Source: a virus (lineage: Duplodnaviria > Caudoviricetes). Taken from it: a stretch of DNA of 64,000 nt. The stretch covers positions 19,204 to 83,203 of the IMG/VR virus record IMGVR_UViG_3300005689_000302. One strand, written 5' to 3'. Below, in pieces: positions 5,701-63,690 of this stretch. The first letter of the stretch is position 1; the number at the start of each line of letters is the position of its first letter. The position numbers and the translations under genes are program-made. The notes under the pieces were generated by a model that was not told the origin of the DNA, made no database searches, and worked only from the letters and a program-made list of their open reading frames with translations.

Positions 5701-8700
5701 CTGGACAAACCGGCGCCGCCGGATCCTTTGAAAGCCCCGCGCGAAGCCGCGCCGCCGCCGAAGCTCGTCAGCGAGCCGCCGCCGGCGCCTGCGCCCACCG
5801 CGACCGAATCGCTCGCTCCGATCAGCTCGAAGAATTACGCGCCGCATGTGTACGCCGGCCTCAACAAGCTGTGGGACGCCGGCGGGACGGCCTACGTCAA
5901 CACGCATCTGAAAACGACGCGGATCGCGCCGAAGGATCGAGACGCGATCAAGCTCACGAGCAAGGGCGGTCTATACCTGCGCCGCGGCAAACATTGGGAT
6001 GCGATCACCGGCGACGTACTCGATCGCCTGGGAAGCCAAGTCGGCCTACCGTCGAGCTACGATCTGCACAAGCAAGAATGGGACGCCGAGCACAAGAACG
6101 CCCGCTACGGCGGCAAGCATCCGGGCGAACTACACGACGCCGAATTTCTCGATCACGCCGAAACGGAGAAGCGCCATCGGGCCAACTATTTCGACGCCGC
6201 CGGCAATAAGTTCGCGAGCAGTCGCGAGACGCCGGCCGAATATGTCGACCTCCCCATCGGTTCCTGGCGGAAGGATCGCAGCTTTAGCGGCCTCTACGGA
6301 AACAGCATCGATCAGCTCGTCGAGCTCGATCCGAACCATTTGGAGTTGCCCGAGGGGGACTACGCCGCCAATCCGAATTTCAACCCGGAAGGGCGACGAT
6401 GGGATGCGGAGCGATACGCCGATTGGATCCGCGAGGGGAAAACCCCGCCGCCGATCAGCGTGCTCGAAATGCCCAATGGATCGCTGAAGGTTAGCGATGG
6501 CCACCGCCGCGCCGCCGCCGCCAAGATGACCGGCCAGCCGATTCGCGCCTGGGTCAATTGGGCGGCCGATACCGGCAAGAAGGATTACGAAGGCAAGCCG
6601 ATCCTGTCGGGGATGACCGATCAGCTCGCCGCGCGCGAGCACGCCGGCGAAGTCGAACCGCATAGCGGCCTGGGCTGGGGGCATGAGGGCGTTGTGAAGC
6701 GGGCGGGGCCTGAGCGACACGCCAAGCCTCGCCCCCTCGACGACTTTGCCCTGCGCAACTTCGCCGAGCGGATCCGCCGCGGCGATCAGCACGGCGCCCG
6801 CGATCTGCTCGTCCGGGCCGGCTTCGATCCGCTGACGCTCGACGCCTATTGGGGAATGATCGTTAAGTCAGTGGTGGGCGGAACTGCGCCGATCAAGCAC
6901 GCCCGCGATCTTCGCGCCGCCATCACCGCCGCGGCTGACGCCACGAATACAGATCCGAGCGACGCCCAGCGCGAAGCCGGCAACTATCCCAAGGGCAAAC
7001 TGTGGCTGCACGGCCTCGAGCTGACGATCGAGAACCCGAAAGGCTCGAAGCGCCGGCCGGAGTGGAAGCCGCTGGCGGCCCACTACGGCTACATTCGCCG
7101 CCACGAAGGCGCCGACGGCGATCAAGTCGATTGCTACCTCGGGCCCCATCCGGAAAGCCAGCTCGTCTTCGTCATCGATCAGCCGAAGGCCTCGGGGCGC
7201 TTTGACGAGCATAAGGTGATGTTCGGCTGGACGAACCTCCGCGACGCGCGAAAAGCGTACGCCGACTGCTATCAAGCCGGCTGGAAAGTCGGCCCGATCA
7301 CCGCCCTGACGATCGAGCAATTCAAAGACTGGCTCGAGTTCGGCGACTTGTCGAAGCCGATCGGCCGCTACAAGCCGGCGAAATACGCCCGCTCGATGGC
7401 GTCGGTGCTGCGCTACGCCGAGCGATCGGAAGAACGCGGGCAAGGCCGCGGCCAGCCTGGCAATCGCGGGCAGTTCGGCTACGCGCCCAAGCGGAAGAAA
7501 ACGATCGGGCAAGGCCAGCAAGAGTTCCATTGGGTGACGATCGACGGAACGCACGTTGCGATCAACGATGCGACCGGGGCGATCGAAAAGGGTCCGAAGG
7601 CGCTCGTGGGTAAGACGCTCGGCGGGCCGAAGAAACAGAAGGGGCTGTTTGACGACGACGATAAGCCGGCGAAAAAGGCGGAAGAGAAGCCCGAAGAGAA
7701 ACGGGTCGAAGCGCCGCCCGAAAAGAAACCGCCCGAGGTGCCGGCGACGATCGAAGAGCTTGACGACGACGTTGTCGACGACGATGACATCGAAGCGGGG
7801 GACGATAGCGTTACCGATCGCCTCAAGTCCAGCGTAAACGCCTTTCTCGACGACAAGCCCGATGGCTCGTGGCGGGATTGGATGGATGAGCGCGGCACGA
7901 AACATTTGCTCGACGAATTAGACGGCGGCGATGATAAGCTTCGCGGGCGATTGGAGTATGAAGCGTTTGAGCTGTTCGCTTGGAGGGAGCCGAAGGAGAA
8001 GGATCAGCCGGCGGGCGAAACGGCCGACGATGTACTCGAGCCTTTCGCAGAATCTCCGGAGCCAGCCGCCGACGCGTCGCCTGAGCCGGCTCTGCCCGCC
8101 GAGCAATCTGCCACACCCTCTGCCGCTCCCGCGCCAAAGCCTGCCGCGACGGCCAAGTCAAAGGGCGCCCGCGCCGCCGCCCGCGCGAAGTTGATGGAAG
8201 ACTTCGGCGAAAAGATCGGCGGCGCTCGAAAGGAAACGGCGCGGCCTTCCAATCGTCCGAAAGTCGAGAAGCCCGCCGACGAACGGCCCGCCTGGGCGCG
8301 GCGCTACAACATTTCCCAAATCACCAAAAGCACGAAGCCCGGCGAAGAGGGGAAGTGGGCGATCTACGACACGAAACAAAAGACCTGGTCGGGCCAGCCG
8401 AAGCAAGTCGGCGGCGGCATGTTGTTTGATTCCAAGGAGGATGCCGAGAAGAGCTTGCCGCTGTACGAAGTATCGCGCAGCCACCGCGTCTACGCCTACA
8501 CGCCGAAGGGCGCGACCGAAAAGCAGTTCGGCATTTTCCGCAAACTGGGCGACCGAAAGACGCCGCTCGTCAAAGGCGGTTTTGCCTCCGAACAGGAGGC
8601 GATGCAACATATGGCGGCGAATCCACACGATGTTATCGGTCACAAGTTTCCGCGATACGAAAGCTACCAGTACCTCGATCGCGTCGAACGCAAGGGCGGG

Positions 8701-47439: not shown

Positions 47440-48453
47440 ATGAGCTCCTGTCTCACGGTACGCGCTGGGCAAGATCGCTCGCTCCGTGCGCTTTACGAAG
47501 CGAGCTACCGGCCGCTGCGTCACCTTGGAAAATCGAAGGCCACGATCGCCGAGACGCGCTGCCAGCTCAATGTCTTCGACAAGTTCTTCGCCGAACGGCT
47601 GGCGAGTCAGCAAGCCGCGTCTCGGCCGGCGTCGATCGACGATCTGTCCGACGAACTGCTTGCCGATGCGATGGCGTGGCAAATCGATCGCGGCCGCTCG
47701 GTCGCCACGGCCAACAAGCTCTATCGCGTCCTCAAGAGCTTGTGGCGGTTCGCCCGCAAGAAGAGGCTGCTCGAGTCGCTGCCCGAGCTCGATCCGATTC
47801 CCGAAGAGAAACGCGAGCCGCGCACCTGGACGCTGGCGGACTACGAAGCGATTCTTACGGCGGCCGATGCGCTCGTCGGCTACGTCGGCGAATTGCCGGC
47901 GGCGCTCTGGTGGCGGGCGCTGCTGTTGACAGTCGTCAACACGGGCGGGCGAATCTCGGCGGTGATGGCGATCCGGTTGGTCGACGTCGATCTGGCGCGG
48001 CGGGAAATCCTCTTGCGGGCCCACAATCAGAAGCAGCGCTGCGATCAGCGGTTCGAATTGCAGCCGACGGTCGTCGTGGCGCTGCGGGCGATTGGGGCGG
48101 GCGATCCGCACGGCGACACGCGCGAGTTTCTCTTCCCCTGGCCGCTCGATTGCGGCAACGAAGGGCGCCAGTGGCGATCGCTGCGGCGGCATTACCGGCG
48201 GCTGCTCGATGCGGCCGGCCTGCCGAGCGGGCGGCGCAATCTCTTCCACAACCTGCGGGCGTTTACGGCGACGATTCTCGCCGACGCCAAAGGGGAAGAG
48301 TTTGCCCGCGACTATCTCGGCCATTCGCACGCCAGCGTCACGCGGCGGTATCTCGACCGCGCGCAAATGAAAACCAAACGCTCGGGCGTGGCGCACCTGC
48401 CCGAGCCGAAGCTCTCGCCGTCGCTGCGGATTCATGCCGGCGACGCCGGCTAA
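47440..48453 (+). CDS. int: Tyrosine recombinase/integrase
   Basis: NTGGRIS (Arg I), FHNLR (HxxR), LGH, RRY catalytic Tyr. Confidence 0.92.
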   Translation: MSSCLTVRAGQDRSLRALYEASYRPLRHLGKSKATIAETRCQLNVFDKFFAERLASQQAASRPASIDDLSDELLADAMAWQIDRGRSVATANKLYRVLKSLWRFARKKRLLESLPELDPIPEEKREPRTWTLADYEAILTAADALVGYVGELPAALWWRALLLTVVNTGGRISAVMAIRLVDVDLARREILLRAHNQKQRCDQRFELQPTVVVALRAIGAGDPHGDTREFLFPWPLDCGNEGRQWRSLRRHYRRLLDAAGLPSGRRNLFHNLRAFTATILADAKGEEFARDYLGHSHASVTRRYLDRAQMKTKRSGVAHLPEPKLSPSLRIHAGDAG

Positions 48454-51299: not shown

Positions 51300-51344
51300 A
51301 AGAACTTATGTATTTACGGAATGCGATCGTCGGGAATCCGCGGC

Positions 51345-51552
51345 CCTCATTGTTAGTCGGCTACCAACCGACGTCAGGGACTCGCAACCCTGAATGGCGA
51401 GCAGTCGAACGGCCCAGAGCGCCGATCGAGCCTCTCGCCGGAGTCCAAGAGTCGCCGCAAGGCGAGACCGAAAAGGCTTCGGATGATATGGACCGAGGCA
51501 ATTCCTTCCCGGAGGGCCGCGGTTTTCCGGCGATCGCTTCCATCTTTTTTTT
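51345..51552 (+). ncRNA. tracrRNA-like structured RNA
   Basis: Several hairpins (one GCAA tetraloop), loop CTCGCAA (51381-51387) and GCAATTCCTTCCCGGA (51498-51513) complementary to the repeat 3' half. Ends in T8. The 5' boundary is approximate. Confidence 0.75.
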
Positions 51553-51576
51553 GTCCATGTTCTTAAGGATTTCCGA

Positions 51577-52128
51577 ATGACCAGAAAAATGACCAGCAGT
51601 CAGAAGCACGCCGAGCTCAAGCGCCTGTCGAAGGAGATTCATACGAACATCTTCCAGATGGCGCGGCTCGCCTCGGAACTGCTCGATGACATCGAATACG
51701 TCGACTCTTGCGGCGGAGAAGGGGCGTTGCTCGACCAGCTTCAGCAAAAGGAGTTTTCACACTTTGGCGGTTCGCCGTCGGTGGCGCAGTTGGTGCGCGC
51801 CTATCGGGCGAATGGAAAAGAAGAAGCATGGCGTCAGCGCGGCTTCAACGTCTGGGCGATGATCGAACTGGCCAACCCACCGGCGGCGCGGACCAGTGGC
51901 GCCAGCTCCAATGGCCAGCCTAAAAAGTCGGTTAAGGAATTGGAGGCGACACTTGCGGAGCGCGAGGCGGCTTTCGGCAAGGAACGATCCACGAGCGAAG
52001 CGACGATCGCAGAGCTGCAAGCCAAGGTAGAGGTGTTAGAGAAAGAGAATCGTCAACTTCGCAGACGAATTGAAACGCTGGAGCGCGACTTGAACGAGCG
52101 AGCCAGTCAGCAAGCGGCGATGGCGTAA
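51577..52128 (+). CDS. Hypothetical protein with a C-terminal coiled coil, inside the CRISPR locus
   Basis: Helical N-terminus and IAELQAKVEVLEKENRQLRRRIETLE leucine-zipper-like tail. Confidence 0.75.
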   Translation: MTRKMTSSQKHAELKRLSKEIHTNIFQMARLASELLDDIEYVDSCGGEGALLDQLQQKEFSHFGGSPSVAQLVRAYRANGKEEAWRQRGFNVWAMIELANPPAARTSGASSNGQPKKSVKELEATLAEREAAFGKERSTSEATIAELQAKVEVLEKENRQLRRRIETLERDLNERASQQAAMA

Positions 52129-52145
52129 GGCGTTACGTCGAGACC

Positions 52146-52775
52146 GTTGCGCGAGGCATGGGTTCGGGAGGGAATTGCGAGAGAGCGAGTCCCCGGAAGG
52201 AGTCCGCCTAAGTTGCGCGAGGCATGGGTTCGGGAGGGAATTGCGAGTGCAGCCATACGGCACGCGCCCGGTGATCGGTTGCGCGAGGCATGGGTTCGGG
52301 AGGGAATTGCGAGTTGTCGCGGCGGGGAATGATCGGTGCGCCGGTTGCGCGAGGCATGGGTTCGGGAGGGAATTGCGAGGAAAATGCGGTCCGGCTCCGG
52401 AAGTGGTCAGTTGCGCGAGGCATGGGTTCGGGAGGGAATTGCGAGAAATGGCCCGCGTGGGGGCACACTTCGCGAGTTGCGCGAGGCATGGGTTCGGGAG
52501 GGAATTGCGAGAGCAGTTCGTCGGCCCACTTCTTCATATTCGTTGCGCGAGGCATGGGTTCGGGAGGGAATTGCGAGTCAAGATATTCGCTCAGGCAATC
52601 CGGGCGCGTTGCGCGAGGCATGGGTTCGGGAGGGAATTGCGAGTACCTGGTCATCTGGAACTCTTGGGAACGAGTTGCGCGAGGCATGGGTTCGGGAGGG
52701 AATTGCGAGCGCCAACGCGGTTAGAGAAAGATCGATTTCGTTGCGCGAGGCATGGGTTCGGGAGGGAATTGCGAG
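52146..52775 (+). CRISPR. CRISPR array: 10 identical 36-nt repeats GTTGCGCGAGGCATGGGTTCGGGAGGGAATTGCGAG and 9 spacers of 30 nt
   Basis: Repeats start at 52146, 52212, 52278, 52344, 52410, 52476, 52542, 52608, 52674 and 52740 (66-nt period). Spacers are unique. Confidence 0.98.
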
Positions 52776-52852
52776 TATTCCCAGTTTTGACCGCGTTTGC
52801 GTAACGATATTGGTTCGAAAAAAAAACGCCATCACCATAAGGAAATCCAGCG

Positions 52853-54085
52853 ATGCAATCGATCACATTACTTCGTTTGAAAGTGGAGCCGCGCCACGCT
52901 GCCGAGCTCGCTGAGATAGGAGAGCTTTGTCGACGCGGCCGAAACGCCGCGGTGACGGACTGGCTCTTGCGCCAGCATGGCCTTCCGGAAAGCGACCGCC
53001 AGAGGAAACGTCTGCGGGCGATGTCGGCCAATGAGCGAGACAAACTACTAGCTCGCGGCCTCGATCCCGACGTGCAGCAAAAGAGCGAAAACGCCAAGCT
53101 CTACGCCGCGGTCACTGAGAAAATTCCCGAACTGAGCGGCGCCGTCGCCTCGGTGATCGCTAATTCAGTCGCCTCCTCGTTGTCGAAGCGAATCGATTGG
53201 CGGCGCGGTTTCGATCAAGAGGGAAAACGGCGGCGGATGCGTGACGCGATTCTAGCCGGCGACGACAGACCTCCGTTCACCACTAAACGCGAGATACCAG
53301 TGGTGGGAAAAAAGGCGAGCGTTGCTTTTGACGACACGCTCTCGGTATCGATCCAGCGGCCGACGCAAGCAATCGAATGCCTCACTCTCGGTTTGAGTCT
53401 TCGTCGCTTGCCTGCGCCCCACAAGAAGCTGTTGCGAGCGCTGGCCTCGGGCGCGCGGAAGCTCACCGACTCGAAGCTGGTGATGAAGGATCAGGAGTGG
53501 TTCTGGCACGTTACCTTTTTCGATGAGCGGGAGCGACTGTCGGATGCGCGGGCGGAGCTGTACCCGGTGCTCGCGGGCGAGAGAACGAAATCCTTCGATC
53601 CGTTCCTGCGGATGGAGTTTCCGGAAGACCGCTGTTGGTATGTGGGCGACGGCGCCTATTTGCGGGCGCAGACGCGGCGCTACATCGGACTGCGAAAGCA
53701 GATTGGCTGGCGGTATCGTTTCGGCCATGGTCGGGGGCACGGACGGGAGAAGGTCGACGCCGCCATATCGCGGCGCTACGAACAGGAGCGCAACATGCGA
53801 TCGGAGGTTCTTTGGCGATCGATAAACGACGCGCTTCGCGTTTGCGAGCGTCGAAATTTTGGCGTGCTGGTTTATCACGAGCCGAGCCTACCGCTGCGGG
53901 AAAAGTGCTGGTTTGCCCGCAACGATCAGGGGCTGTCGATCGACTGGAATTGGACGAGTTTTCGCCAACGGCTGATCAATGCGGCGGCTAGGCGGCGGGT
54001 GGAAGTGATCGTTGAACCGTGGAAGCTGAAGGAGGCGATGGCCGATGCCAAAAAGAGAAGCGATTCGCAAGATGATGCCGTGTGA
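52853..54085 (+). CDS. Miniature type V (Cas12f/TnpB-like) effector, RuvC-degenerate and lacking the Zn finger
   Basis: WED/REC-like N-terminus (CRRGRN, ILAGDDRPPF), AELYPV where GxDxG is expected, GHGRGHGR, VLVYHE(343), WNWTSFRQRL..A..V.V, then ends without CxxC or RuvC-III. Lies 77 nt after the array with an AAGGA RBS. Confidence 0.75.
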   Translation: MQSITLLRLKVEPRHAAELAEIGELCRRGRNAAVTDWLLRQHGLPESDRQRKRLRAMSANERDKLLARGLDPDVQQKSENAKLYAAVTEKIPELSGAVASVIANSVASSLSKRIDWRRGFDQEGKRRRMRDAILAGDDRPPFTTKREIPVVGKKASVAFDDTLSVSIQRPTQAIECLTLGLSLRRLPAPHKKLLRALASGARKLTDSKLVMKDQEWFWHVTFFDERERLSDARAELYPVLAGERTKSFDPFLRMEFPEDRCWYVGDGAYLRAQTRRYIGLRKQIGWRYRFGHGRGHGREKVDAAISRRYEQERNMRSEVLWRSINDALRVCERRNFGVLVYHEPSLPLREKCWFARNDQGLSIDWNWTSFRQRLINAAARRRVEVIVEPWKLKEAMADAKKRSDSQDDAV

Positions 54086-54344
54086 GGTCTGCGCGGCTGA
54101 GGTGTCGATGGGAGGCGAGGCGTTGATTGAGGCGAGCGAAGGAAAGCGGACGGTTTTGTGTGGTCGCTGCCGCCGGTACGTTTCTTCGTCGCGCTGCCGA
54201 GTCTCTCAATTACCGTCCGAGGCGTCGGCTCCGGCCGTTGGACTGGCGAGGAAATCCGGCAAAAGCGCCAAGCACAAGCGGGGCCTAGCGAGCTGTCCAC
54301 TGCGCAGAATGTTGTAACCATCTGACGAAACCGCCAAACCACGG

Positions 54345-55436
54345 ATGGCCAAGCGCCGACCAACCATCGACCCCAACAACCGACCGCTCTTGGCGGAAGC
54401 CGAAGAGCAATCCCGGCGGAATTGGGCGTTGATCCGGTTGGCGCGGCTGCCTGTGTCGGCGGCGGAAGTTCGCTTGGTGCGACGGTTGTTGGAGCGGGTC
54501 TTCGCCATGAGCTCACGATTTCCGTGGCAGGTAACCAACGAGCAACTGGCCGAAGACTTAGACGTTGGCGTCCGAACGCTGCAGCACGCCAAAAGCGTGG
54601 CAAAGCGCCTCGGCGTCCTAAAGATCGAAATGGATTGCGGGTCTGGTGGTCGGCGCGCGGATCGTTTGAGTGTCAATCTCGATGGCTTGCGCGCCTACCA
54701 GAAGCAGCATGAACCGCCATGCGAAATCGGCGCGGCGCCGCGCAAAGTTCGCATGGCGCCGCGCAAAGTTCGCATGGCGCCGCGCGAAAACAGCGCGGCC
54801 TATAAGGAAAGGTCCAGTTCCTCTTCCAGTATTAGTTCCAAAGAACCTTCCCCTTCAGTTTCCAGCGATCCCGCCGCGAAGCGCTCCGTTCCCGAGGCCG
54901 CGGAAGACTGGCAAACCGTGGAGGGGGCTCTTGGAAAGCTGGGGATGGAAGCGGCCGGCCGCTGCGCGGCGATGGCTCGGTGGAAAGGATACGCGCTGGC
55001 GGAAATGCAAGCGCTGATCGCCTATTGGCAAGAGCATCCCGGCGCGTGGCGCATCGGCGCGCTGTGGTCGCGGATCGAGAACTCGGCCGCCGGGCGAGCG
55101 ATCGCCGAGGGCTGGCCGCCGATGGATGAAAGCTACCTCCGGCAAGCCGAATGGCGGGCGCGCGTCGAGCGCGAACGCCAGCAAGCGGCGGCGGAAGTGG
55201 CGAAGGACGTGGCGCGGCGGGCGGAAGCGCAAGCGAAGCTGGCCGAGCTGCAGGCCCTCGAAGCGAAGCACCTGCCGGGCCTCGAAGCGCTCGACCGGGA
55301 ATCGCTGCTCGCGCTGGCGGGCGAGCTGTTCGGCGACGGTCTGCTCTTGCAGCGGTTTGAAAAGCTCGGCCTGGCCGACGACTCGCTGCGGTGGTTGTTG
55401 ATGGAACGATTGGATAAGCGGGGCTCTGGCCCCTGA
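54345..55436 (+). CDS. Replication initiator (N-terminal wHTH)
   Basis: VTNEQLAEDLDVGVRTLQHAKSVAKRLGVLKIE HTH and a Ser-rich linker carrying tandem repeats. Confidence 0.7.
   Translation: MAKRRPTIDPNNRPLLAEAEEQSRRNWALIRLARLPVSAAEVRLVRRLLERVFAMSSRFPWQVTNEQLAEDLDVGVRTLQHAKSVAKRLGVLKIEMDCGSGGRRADRLSVNLDGLRAYQKQHEPPCEIGAAPRKVRMAPRKVRMAPRENSAAYKERSSSSSSISSKEPSPSVSSDPAAKRSVPEAAEDWQTVEGALGKLGMEAAGRCAAMARWKGYALAEMQALIAYWQEHPGAWRIGALWSRIENSAAGRAIAEGWPPMDESYLRQAEWRARVERERQQAAAEVAKDVARRAEAQAKLAELQALEAKHLPGLEALDRESLLALAGELFGDGLLLQRFEKLGLADDSLRWLLMERLDKRGSGP
54734..54789 (+). repeat. Tandem 21-bp repeats (candidate iterons/origin)
   Basis: GGCGCCGCGCAAAGTTCGCAT twice plus a partial third copy, inside the initiator linker. 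Confidence 0.6.
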
Positions 55437-55456: not shown

Positions 55457-55666
55457 ATGCTCGTACTCGCACGACGCAAGCACGAAGAGATTTACTTGAA
55501 CGCCGGCCGGCCGGATCAAATCACGGTCGCCGTGCTCGACCTGGCCGGCGGCAAAGTTCGGCTTGGGATCGACGCCCCGGCCGACTGCTCGATCTTCCGG
55601 CGGGAAGTGTGGGAAGCGATCCAGCGCGAAGAGCTGCACAAACAAGAACTGAAAGGCGAAGCATGA
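55457..55666 (+). CDS. csrA: Carbon storage regulator CsrA-like protein
   Basis: MLVLARRKHEEIYL...VRLGIDAP....IFRREV. Confidence 0.88.
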   Translation: MLVLARRKHEEIYLNAGRPDQITVAVLDLAGGKVRLGIDAPADCSIFRREVWEAIQREELHKQELKGEA

Positions 55667-58647: not shown

Positions 58648-59061
58648 ATGAAGCTCTCCAACCTCCCCATCTACGAAACCCACGCCCCCGAGTCGATCGG
58701 CGCTTGGGTGTCGCGGATCGTTCGCCGCAACCTGGCTGACTGGCCGCTGTGGCCGGGAGTCTGCTCGATCGCCGTCCATCACGACGCCCGGTCGATCGAG
58801 TATGTCGCCGGCCGGCCGCCGCGCCGCGATAAGAACGGCAAGCGGCTGCCGCCGAATCCGGAAGACACCTATTTCCGCTTCACGGTCGACGGCGACGGCT
58901 TTCTGCTGAGCGAAGCGCGGATTGCGATGTCGCAGCGCGGGCTGGGGAATGGGCAGGCGCTGTGGCGCTGCCTGACGGGCGTGGCGCGCGATCTGGGCGC
59001 GACGCGGTTGTCGATCAGCGATGAGGCGATTGAAGGGGTGAATGAAAGGGAGGGGGTATGA
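58648..59061 (+). CDS. Hypothetical protein
   Basis: Operon packing. Confidence 0.55.
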
Positions 59062-59795
59062 ACTGCTACCGCTGCAATTCGTGGCCGTGCGATTGTCGGG
59101 ATGGCTGCATGGTGATTCATGGTGATGGCGTTATCTCTTTGGCAGAGATGGAGAGCGAATCTGTTGCGACCATCTTTACCGACCCGCCATATTCAAGCGG
59201 AGCAAGGCAGACGGCGATGATGCGTTCTCGCGGATCCATGCGTCGCAAAGAGGGGCCGCACGCGAAATGGATTGGCGGTGACAACTTGAGTTCACACGGG
59301 TTTGCGATGCTCGTTCGTTTGTTCTCGGCTGAATGCTTTCGCGTGGCGCAAGTCGGCGCGCATCTGTTCTCGTTCATCGATTGGCGGCAATGGCCGACGC
59401 TCGCGGGGTCGATCGAGAGTTCGGGTTGGTCGATGCGATCGTGCTTAGTCTGGGATAAGCAATCGTTTGGGATGGGCAATGGCTTCCGCCAGCAAGCGGA
59501 GTTCGTCGTTCACGCCTCGAAAGGCGTCGCCGACAACTTCATTCGGCATGACTTGGGCACCGTTTTCTATTGTCGCCGCGATCAAGACGATCTGCACCCA
59601 ACCACCAAGCCGCTTTCGGTTGTTCGGGAAATGCTGAGCGCTGTGCCTGACGGGCGAATCCTGGATCCCTTCATGGGCAGCGGCACAACCCTTCGCGCCG
59701 CGAAAGATTTGGGGAGAAAAGCAATCGGCATCGAGATCGAAGAGCGCTACTGCGAGATTGCCGCGAAGCGATTGGAGCAGGAGGTGCTTTTCTAA
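59058..59795 (+). CDS. DNA N6-adenine/N4-cytosine methyltransferase (beta class)
   Basis: TDPPY precedes HPTTKP and [11 protein letters not shown]. Confidence 0.9.
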
Positions 59796-62807: not shown

Positions 62808-63181
62808 GCGACTTCGACCCCAACCCGAGCGAAGAGAGAAACGAAGAGCCCGTCGACAAGCCTTGCCGCGTCACGATCGAAATTGGACACGACATTACGC
62901 AGCGGGAGCGTCGCGTATGGGGAAGCGACAACGTGGCGATGGCGCTCGCGGATTGCATCGGGGATGCGAATTTACCGAGGCCGGCCCGGCTCGTGGCGCA
63001 AGTGGTGCGCGATCTATTTGAGGATGGGCGTATTGCTTTTCCCGACGAACTGCCCACCGATGAAATCTGGCTGGCGATCGACAAAGCGGAAATGGCGTTT
63101 AAGGACGCCGCTTATGGCGTGATGGAGGCGTGGGAGGCGCGGGATAAAGTAACGCACAGTTACCGTTCACAAGTTCCATGA
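62804..63181 (+). CDS. Hypothetical protein
   Basis: ATGA overlaps on both sides. Confidence 0.55.
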   Translation: MSDFDPNPSEERNEEPVDKPCRVTIEIGHDITQRERRVWGSDNVAMALADCIGDANLPRPARLVAQVVRDLFEDGRIAFPDELPTDEIWLAIDKAEMAFKDAAYGVMEAWEARDKVTHSYRSQVP

Positions 63182-63690
63182 AAACGCTTTTCGACAAATC
63201 CGACGCCCAATTCTCCCCCTGCCGAACCTGGCGATATGCCCTCTGGCGAACCTGGGATTGGCAAGGCCACGCGAACGTCTGCATGTTCATCGGCGTTAAT
63301 CCATCGACGGCCGACGAACGCAAGAACGATCCGACGGTCACGCGCTGCATCAACTTCGCGAAAAGCTGGGGCTACGGCGGCCTGATCATGATGAACCTCT
63401 TCGCCTTCCGGGCGACGAAGATTCGCGACTTGTGGAAAGCGGCCGATCCGATCGGACCGGGAAACGACGAAGCGTTCGGCTATCAATCCTCTCGCTGCGG
63501 GCTGATCGTGGCGGCCTGGGGCGCGAAGAGCGATCGGCGGATGGCGCCGCGGGCGGCTGTCATTCCGGGGCTGGTCGGCGGCCGGCCGCTGTATTGTTTG
63601 GGAAGGACGGCGGAAGGCCATCCGCTCCATCCGCTGTTTGTGCCTGGGGATCGGAAACCGGTGATTTATTCGGGGGGGATAGCAGCATGA
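63178..63690 (+). CDS. DUF1643 family protein
   Basis: FSPCRTWRY.L.R.W...NPSTADE..DPT..RC..FA..WGYGG...NLFA.RAT...HPL. Confidence 0.88.
   Translation: MKTLFDKSDAQFSPCRTWRYALWRTWDWQGHANVCMFIGVNPSTADERKNDPTVTRCINFAKSWGYGGLIMMNLFAFRATKIRDLWKAADPIGPGNDEAFGYQSSRCGLIVAAWGAKSDRRMAPRAAVIPGLVGGRPLYCLGRTAEGHPLHPLFVPGDRKPVIYSGGIAA

Follow-up and report, generated by a model that had tools for sequence, protein, structure and literature searches.

The stretch of DNA analysed here (the window, 64,000 nucleotides; all positions refer to it unless another locus is named) comprises bases 19204-83203 of IMG/VR virus record IMGVR_UViG_3300005689_000302, an 83,203 bp phage genome from a bioreactor-sludge metagenome study that CheckV rates as 100% complete. 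The phage is temperate and its genome complete. On one strand it carries, in order, a structured non-coding RNA resembling a trans-activating CRISPR RNA (tracrRNA; CRISPR, clusters of regularly interspaced short palindromic repeats), a gene for a coiled-coil-like accessory protein, a CRISPR array, a gene for a 410-residue relative of the Cas12f effectors and a gene for a small Zn-ribbon protein (Table 1). An initial annotation, made from the letters of the sequence, had described a minimal, probably nuclease-dead type V CRISPR system composed of tracrRNA, accessory open reading frame (ORF), array and effector; all the positions that it gave were correct when re-checked on the sequence, and its parts list stands apart from the Zn-ribbon ORF overlapping the effector stop codon, which it had missed.

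Table 1. Elements of the module, followed by neighbouring features, in window coordinates.
Feature	Position	Strand	Basis or remark
tracrRNA-like structured non-coding RNA	51318..51552	+	fold, covariance, anti-repeat; predicted RNA ends
Accessory coiled-coil-like protein, 183 aa	51577..52128	+	ORF, homologues beside effector or tracrRNA
CRISPR array, 10 repeats/10 spacers	52146..52775	+	exact repeats at regular spacing
Effector, 410 aa, Cas12f-like WED-REC-RuvC	52853..54085	+	profile and AlphaFold fold match
Small Zn-ribbon protein, ~81 aa from ATG 54072 (listed ORF from 54045)	54072..54317	+	conserved Cys, conserved position
tRNA-Glu	46501		upstream neighbour
Tyrosine integrase	47440-48453		upstream neighbour; unknown ORFs between integrase and module
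363-aa unknown ORF	54345-55436		directly downstream of module
CsrA-family RNA-binding regulator	55457-55666		downstream; Pfam E 4.5e-18
DUF5131 (phage Gp37/Gp68-like)	55734-57083		early region; E 7e-82
N6/N4 DNA methylase	59058-59795		early region
DUF1643	63178-63690		early region

Used alone as a query, the effector found no useful match in Pfam, NCBIfam, PADLOC or the sequences of the PDB. A word-indexed search returned 20 relatives at 40-51% identity, and an exhaustive HMMER search about 160 representative clusters (50% identity; 380-550 residues), none of them named by Pfam; the family profile and all column statistics given below are based on 135 of these representatives, every one metagenomic. 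Searched against the PDB, the 135-member profile matched OsCas12f (9nzq, E 1.3e-21), SpCas12f1 (2e-20) and AsCas12f (about 1e-17), and more weakly the naturally dead dCas12f 9n9c (9.5e-13), Un1Cas12f1 (3e-9) and a TnpB (1e-3). An AlphaFold model built with the family alignment (predicted local distance difference test, pLDDT, 95.5) returned AsCas12f as its top Foldseek match (E 3.5e-17), and VIA-align superposed it best on AsCas12f (7wju_A, Z 21.6, root-mean-square deviation 4.4 over 337 residues) and SpCas12f1 (Z 21.4), followed by dCas12f (9n9c_A, Z 20.7, 313 of 346 residues aligned), Cas12k (Z 15-16), TnpB (Z 14) and Cas12m (Z 10-12). Profile and modelled fold together show the protein to be a Cas12f relative with a predicted WED-REC-RuvC architecture, which narrows the Cas12f/TnpB-like assignment of the initial annotation to Cas12f.

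What the protein lacks is the DNA-cutting machinery. In the hidden Markov model (HMM) alignment the RuvC-I motif of Cas12f, LGVDMG, stands opposite A234-V239 (AELYPV) of the effector (P0001), so that its catalytic Asp corresponds to Y237; the IGHG motif corresponds to G295-H296-G297 and the RuvC-II Glu to E343, which the window effector keeps. The polypeptide ends where the Zn finger of Cas12f (TSQxCxxCG) would begin, and RuvC-III is absent too. These landmarks and losses had all been read from the single sequence, and they survive in the alignment: none of the 135 relatives has Asp at the RuvC-I position (16 have Glu, the rest T, W, V, R and others), all 135 stop before the Zn finger and RuvC-III, and CxxC occurs in the C-terminal tail of none. 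From the Asp-Glu-Asp triad of an intact RuvC site the effector therefore retains E343 alone, and a separate Zn-ribbon ORF follows the gene. A compact Asp-Glu-Asp site formed by D266 (in GDG), E343 and the Asp of a DLxNAA motif was considered as a replacement and rejected, since its columns are not conserved family-wide (the window copy has R373) and since the Cas12f alignment, which puts RuvC-I elsewhere, contradicts a D266/E343/D373 triad. Because a Cas12f-like protein has here lost its DNA-cutting parts, the effector is most likely an RNA-guided DNA binder that does not cut, an activity with a precedent in dCas12f (PMC13472631).

Related loci, designated by L-numbers, were drawn from IMG/VR, JGI metagenomes, Logan and NCBI assemblies, and all of those recovered lie on virus records or unclassified metagenomic contigs. 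In the window the ATG of the Zn-ribbon gene overlaps the effector stop codon, and the same holds for the gene found in the same place in 11 other loci (L003, L005, L007, L012, L013, L014, L016, L017, L020, L021, L022), an arrangement that suggests translational coupling; L031 has a similar Zn-ribbon gene. The encoded proteins (about 80-107 residues) share a CxxC, 22 residues, a CxxCRRY and then a basic tail of the form ...ARVSQLPTE...LGLRRKxGRGAK...LASxPLxRCG. When the proteins of the window, L003, L005 and L007 are aligned, all four Cys are invariant and no acidic residue is. The protein has no sequence match in Pfam or the PDB.

This gene lies exactly where the Zn finger of a Cas12f would come, and 'TARVSQ' follows its second CxxC at about the distance of the RuvC-III motif, as judged by eye with no alignment behind it. 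Such a position would be expected if the Zn-ribbon protein were the detached Zn finger plus RuvC-III of a Cas12f, re-assembling with the 410-residue protein into an active DNase. We regard a split nuclease of this kind as very improbable, given the loss of the RuvC-I Asp in 135 of 135 effectors, the lack of an invariant acidic residue in the Zn-ribbon proteins, the absence of sequence similarity to Cas12f C-termini in PDB searches, and the existence of long relatives whose tail contains no Zn finger at all. In these long effector homologues (e.g. P0121, P0102) a segment resembling the second half of the Zn-ribbon protein (ARVSE...GHxxAPLAxG) is fused C-terminally without the Zn ribbon itself, which is indirect evidence that effector and Zn-ribbon protein act together. 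The motif G-x-x-G-H-x-x-A-P-L-A-x-G occurs in the C-terminal 50-75 residues of P0080, P0092, P0098, P0102, P0121 and P0146, and may be a short docking peptide for some partner.

The accessory gene, noticed but given no identity in the initial annotation, is co-conserved with the effector. Its 183-residue product is modelled by AlphaFold (pLDDT 89.6) with helices in an N-terminal domain (residues 7-99) and a single long, coiled-coil-like helix (116-182) after it; it belongs to no Pfam, NCBIfam or PADLOC family, has neither a useful sequence match nor a fold match in the PDB, and its matches in a protein atlas fall below reliable scores. Homologues at 29-48% identity stand beside the effector or the tracrRNA in L001, L003, L005, L007, L013, L016, L019 and L023, and a ninth locus, L022, carries a C-terminal fragment at the contig edge. 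The distant L031, with an effector only 26% identical to that of the window, has a homologue as well (hhalign probability 98.8%). Both partner genes, coiled-coil and Zn-ribbon, are thus inherited together with the effector, even among loci so divergent that effector identity falls to 26%.

Upstream of the accessory gene, the 277-nt gap at 51300-51576 folds with a z of -4.8 against shuffles, and the best anti-repeat match within 12 kb falls at 51498-51513. The predicted RNA has a conserved three-helix core (51372-51451), and the element is bracketed by a long locus-specific closing stem (51318-51348 with 51512-51541) and a U-run (51544-51551). A conserved RNA element occurs 5' of the accessory gene in 8 independent loci, immediately so in 7; in L001 a 178-residue ORF lies between them. 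RNAalifold finds three helices common to the loci, and a covariance model (R1) seeded with seven of them recovers the unseeded L001 at 83 bits and exactly one copy per virus record. In the 8-locus alignment 92.9% of cells are paired, with compensatory change in 12 of 21 pairs; 0 of 500 shuffles reach the observed value, and slid controls give 27-47% pairing.

A conserved ACUCGCA forms the loop of the first hairpin and is complementary to UGCGAG, the conserved 3' end of the repeat. The anti-repeat lies some 45-75 nt beyond that hairpin; it varies between loci and matches the repeat of its own locus in the window, L001, L005, L013 and L019 (it is 77-80 nt upstream of the accessory ATG in the window, L005 and L019). 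Duplexes of anti-repeat and cognate repeat are predicted at -24.7 to -30.4 kcal/mol, compared with about -17 for shuffled repeats, and the cognate repeat is best or tied for best in 5 of 5 loci. Rfam has no family for this RNA. Its covariation and cognate anti-repeat bear out the earlier call of a tracrRNA, to the extent that the intergenic RNA looks as a Cas12f-type tracrRNA should, with predicted ends; array and tracrRNA are joined, by computation, through the anti-repeat:repeat pairing that characterises type V-F.

The array consists of 10 identical 36-nt repeats at an exact 66-nt period, separated by 10 different 30-nt spacers, a regularity that is not due to chance. The repeat begins GTTGCGCGAGG and finishes AATTGCGAG, and its terminal TGCGAG is conserved across the family. 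The first repeat follows the stop codon of the 183-residue ORF by 17 nt, and the 410-residue ORF starts 77 nt after the last repeat, the spacing originally reported. Next to the effector homologues of L001, L005, L012, L013, L014, L017, L019, L020, L031 and L033 stand related arrays of 36-37-nt repeats, every one with TGCGAG, TGAGAG or TGTGAG as its ending. In most loci the array is downstream of the gene and in the window it is upstream, whereas L001 and L031 have arrays on either side. Gene order is shuffled between loci, but the components are retained. The arrays hold 3-14 units with diverse spacers.

There is no sign of new spacer uptake between L001 and L002, since their arrays differ only by one duplicated unit. 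Searches of the complete 83-kb phage and of four related virus records found neither Cas1 nor Cas2, which extends to the whole phage the absence of cas1 and cas2 that the initial annotation had noted in the window; its corresponding claim for cas4 and the transposition genes is narrower, as transposase, AAA-regulator, TniQ and Cas4 are absent by Pfam from 20 neighbouring ORFs (42.4-63.7 kb), with no genome-wide HMM search for Cas4 or tns genes. Sigma70_r2 had no match above cut-off in the complete phage or the four related records.

In the array of L017 (1067-1510) repeats are degenerate, 63-95% identical to each other and irregularly spaced (35-131 nt), resembling the 'omega-RNA-like arrays' described for sigma-E dCas12f loci. 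A 9.3-kb contig of metagenome run X2, from a second sample (window 52144-52739), joins the first and last repeats and omits 594 nt; this is most likely an assembly collapse of identical repeats, not a one-repeat allele.

Contigs of four runs were compared with the locus. Two spacers, each with adjoining nucleotides, matched another contig of the same metagenome (run X2) with one mismatch: 'G + spacer 5' (52445-52475) and 'G + spacer 7 + G' (52577-52608). The matched contigs (3,409 and 14,478 nt) both have about 60x depth and the phage 16x, and the sequence flanking the matches bears no relation to the array. The community thus contains protospacers, carried by something that is more abundant than the phage. 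CGT[GC]G precedes each protospacer, and their flanks have no match in IMG/VR. Elsewhere, spacers gave no match of at least 17 nt in the phage's own genome, no match in GenBank phages and no cross-targeting of related loci, and spacers 1, 2 and 6 had no 22-nt prefix match in IMG/VR. Spacers 3 and 6 have perfect 13-nt matches to the phage's own genome anchored at the spacer 5' end (1278-1290 and 47648-47660, both on the minus strand); the terminase region contains one of them and the integrase gene the other. Two such matches arose in 0 of 60 shuffled sets, but their flanks differ and no G precedes them, and they are probably noise.

A phage-encoded dead effector with its own tracrRNA recalls the dead Cas9 of II-C2 systems, for which a decoy function has been proposed (cited in PMC11656645, PMC12669027), and by analogy the effector and RNA described here could soak up the crRNAs (CRISPR RNAs) or tracrRNA of a host type V-F system as an anti-CRISPR. 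The phages, however, have multi-spacer arrays of their own, in which the repeats co-vary with the phage tracrRNA and spacers match other contigs. Moreover, no related system that could be the victim was found in 185,579 prokaryote species genomes (one each), where a one-motif protein scan returned no relative and a tracrRNA-motif screen only chance GC-rich matches. A decoy is on these grounds extremely improbable. GenBank phages likewise gave no match to the effector or the array.

Two loci depart from the array pattern. L003 and L007 have no array and carry solitary repeat-like units instead. In L003 these lie at 5958-6000 and 7472-7545, one of them stopping 7 nt before the effector start codon, and downstream there is one full repeat, 10 nt and then half a repeat; in L007 (6460-6575) a terminator hairpin comes after a lone repeat with its guide, and this guide has no second site in its 32-kb record. 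Such units resemble a transitional stage on the way to fixed single guides.

Naturally dead Cas12f proteins with a truncated C-terminus have been published, including the sigma-E-associated dCas12f of Hoffmann et al. (Nature 2026, PMC13472631; 9n9c, 9n9m), and an origin of dCas12f from Cas12f by loss of RuvC-III had been proposed earlier (PMC10691335). The window effector agrees with that protein in its Cas12f fold, in a C-terminal truncation that removes part of RuvC, in lacking the RuvC-I Asp and in small size (365 residues there, 410 here), and both probably depend on partners. It differs in its neighbours, which are the coiled-coil and Zn-ribbon genes rather than an operonic rpoE gene with a C-terminal extension (here neither an rpoE nor a helix-turn-helix (HTH) gene is a neighbour); in its guides, a separate tracrRNA with multi-spacer arrays in place of a single omega-like guide without tracrRNA or array, solo guides being confined to L003 and L007; and in its carrier, a phage rather than a Bacteroidota chromosome. 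By profile score, which is not a tree, the family is closer to active OsCas12f (1e-21) than to 9n9c (1e-12).

The same paper (PMC13472631, Extended Data Fig. 1a,b) presents, by bioinformatics only, a cluster of dCas12f genes beside CRISPR arrays in bacterial metagenome-assembled genomes (MAGs; a Chitinophagaceae MAG). As far as its description allows comparison, that cluster shares with the window a predicted dead Cas12f, arrays, a conserved upstream non-coding RNA and a proposed function in repression; it differs in having its target upstream of an efflux operon, and no phage context or coiled-coil or Zn-ribbon partner is reported for it.

Active Cas12f1 enzymes (AsCas12f, Un1Cas12f1, SpCas12f1, OsCas12f) are the best profile and fold matches and are similar in their miniature size, 36-nt repeats and long structured tracrRNA with a 3' anti-repeat, but their D-E-D RuvC site is intact, they possess a C-terminal Zn finger, they cut DNA and they are usually not phage-borne. 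Cas12m (type V-M), Cas12k (the CRISPR-associated transposons of type V-K) and TldR share RuvC impairment and RNA-guided DNA binding without double-strand cleavage. Cas12m, though, has about 600 residues, retains the Zn finger and does without a tracrRNA; Cas12k acts together with Tn7 genes, none of which Pfam detects among the 20 ORFs searched here, and both give lower fold scores than Cas12f; TldR uses a single fused omega-RNA guide downstream of its gene, has no array and descends from TnpB, whereas the window has array and tracrRNA and a fold nearer Cas12f (Z 21) than TnpB (Z 14). The mismatch with the Cas12k and TldR arrangements that the initial annotation remarked upon is thereby borne out. 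Its claim of novelty has to be reduced, because natural dead truncated Cas12f was already published (PMC13472631, PMC10691335). In the literature compared we found no description of a phage-borne dead-Cas12f family, of a tracrRNA with multi-spacer arrays in such a family or of coiled-coil and Zn-ribbon partners, so the phage-borne tracrRNA-plus-array form with two partners is a new variant.

Taken as a whole, the locus is quite probably a phage module derived from type V-F that has no adaptation genes and consists of a tracrRNA-like RNA, a coiled-coil protein, an array, a dead Cas12f relative and a Zn-ribbon protein, and that binds its targets without cutting them. The array would be transcribed on the plus strand, and each crRNA, a repeat-derived 5' handle plus spacer, would use repeat positions 18-33 to pair with the tracrRNA. 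The crRNA:tracrRNA pair would be loaded by the effector, which probably dimerises in the manner of Cas12f, and an R-loop would form on matching DNA without cleavage; the bound complex may then stop the target from being transcribed or replicated. The Zn-ribbon protein (its start codon suggests translational coupling to the effector) and/or the coiled-coil protein probably docks on the truncated RuvC lobe, and once docked would stabilise binding or add a downstream activity. We propose docking at this site because, in the published structure of dCas12f with sigma-E and RNA polymerase, the C-terminal domain of the partner complements the partially truncated RuvC (bioRxiv 10.1101/2025.06.10.658880).

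Several points weigh against this reading. The case is computational throughout, no RNA run is listed as containing the locus, and the roles of the partners are deduced for two proteins neither of which has a fold or family match. The E343 column is Glu in 110 of 135 relatives, which is unexplained if the site is fully dead. The CGT[GC]G found 5' of the protospacers, ending in G as does the target motif reported for Bacteroidota dCas12f (a single 5'-G, PMC13472631), is a weak guess at a protospacer-adjacent motif, drawn from two protospacers. Finally, the solitary units of L003 and L007 suggest that some relatives serve a fixed regulatory purpose and not interference with many targets.

As to the output of the module, we infer that it is either silencing or recruitment. 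In the latter case the dead effector would merely address a site, and the coiled-coil and/or Zn-ribbon protein would bring to it host RNA polymerase, a replication factor or a nucleoid protein, switching genes on or triggering some other reaction, as sigma-E does with Bacteroidota dCas12f. Several observations speak for this: both partners are conserved as strictly as the effector, and a pure roadblock would need neither; the Zn-ribbon start overlaps the effector stop, and some relatives have the tail motif as part of the effector itself; in the published dCas12f system the truncated RuvC is filled by a domain of the partner; and the solo-guide loci look like fixed regulators. Neither partner, on the other hand, contains a recognisable sigma factor, HTH or enzyme domain, and arrays of 3-14 diverse spacers with matches on foreign contigs look more like interference than like regulation of a handful of fixed promoters. 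We therefore consider RNA-guided recruitment as the principal function unlikely, though not negligible. The module may act against host defence genes or competing phages, as the initial annotation envisaged; the one finding that bears on this is the near-perfect match of two spacers to other contigs of the same sample.

A bolder proposal, possible but doubtful in our estimation, is that the family represents an independent, virus-specific line of dead Cas12f in which the Zn-ribbon protein and the coiled-coil adaptor complete the RuvC lobe and link recognition by multiple guides to a new output, for example the recruitment of host polymerase or replication machinery, or the occlusion of rival phage genomes in the lysogenic state. 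If this were true, the module would be a new class of RNA-guided effector complex, and its 410-residue protein a natural dCas scaffold with built-in recruitment handles. Independently of that proposal, natural dead Cas12f has only recently been shown to drive RNA-guided transcription with a sigma factor, and the same truncated scaffold is put to a different use here by a large family (about 160 clusters at 50% identity) that is purely metagenomic and keeps a tracrRNA and real arrays, along with two partner proteins that are new and strictly co-inherited. The locus is a tractable case in which to learn what phages do with programmable DNA binders and a likely intermediate on the path from Cas12f to regulator; for tool building it provides a very small natural dCas and possible recruitment partners.

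The genomic setting bears on one further explanation. In 3 of 4 virus records a recombinase (tyrosine integrase or similar) is encoded 0.5-3 kb upstream of the tracrRNA, which places the module at the boundary of the lysogeny and early regions of temperate phages, and inactivated TnpB/Cas12f proteins have repeatedly been found associated with phage integrases (PNAS 2023). The module might accordingly guide the choice of integration site by the nearby recombinase, but in the record that contains L007 (G002) the integrase is 24 kb away and none is near L003 or L031, ten different spacers are ill-suited to a single attachment site, and no Tn7 or Mu transposition genes occur among the neighbours; there is scarcely any probability left for this explanation. 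For the non-cutting, multi-guide binder that we prefer, the closeness of the integrase is in line with an early or lysogeny-linked function directed at competitors or host genes.

Integrase, DUF5131, DNA methylase and DUF1643 genes around the module are those of a temperate phage with anti-restriction-type cargo, and small HTH proteins are also encoded downstream. Two divergent phages (that of the window and L005, at 8304-8495) have a CsrA-family gene 1.1-1.4 kb downstream of the module, and CsrA-like genes have been noted near another exapted TnpB (PNAS 2023). Within the 363-residue ORF directly downstream of the module, a strongly palindromic 21-nt unit, GGCGCCGCGCAAAGTTCGCAT, is present in 2.5 perfect tandem copies (54715-54785) that encode a repeated APRKVRM peptide; these copies could be iterons or an operator inside a replication or regulatory gene.

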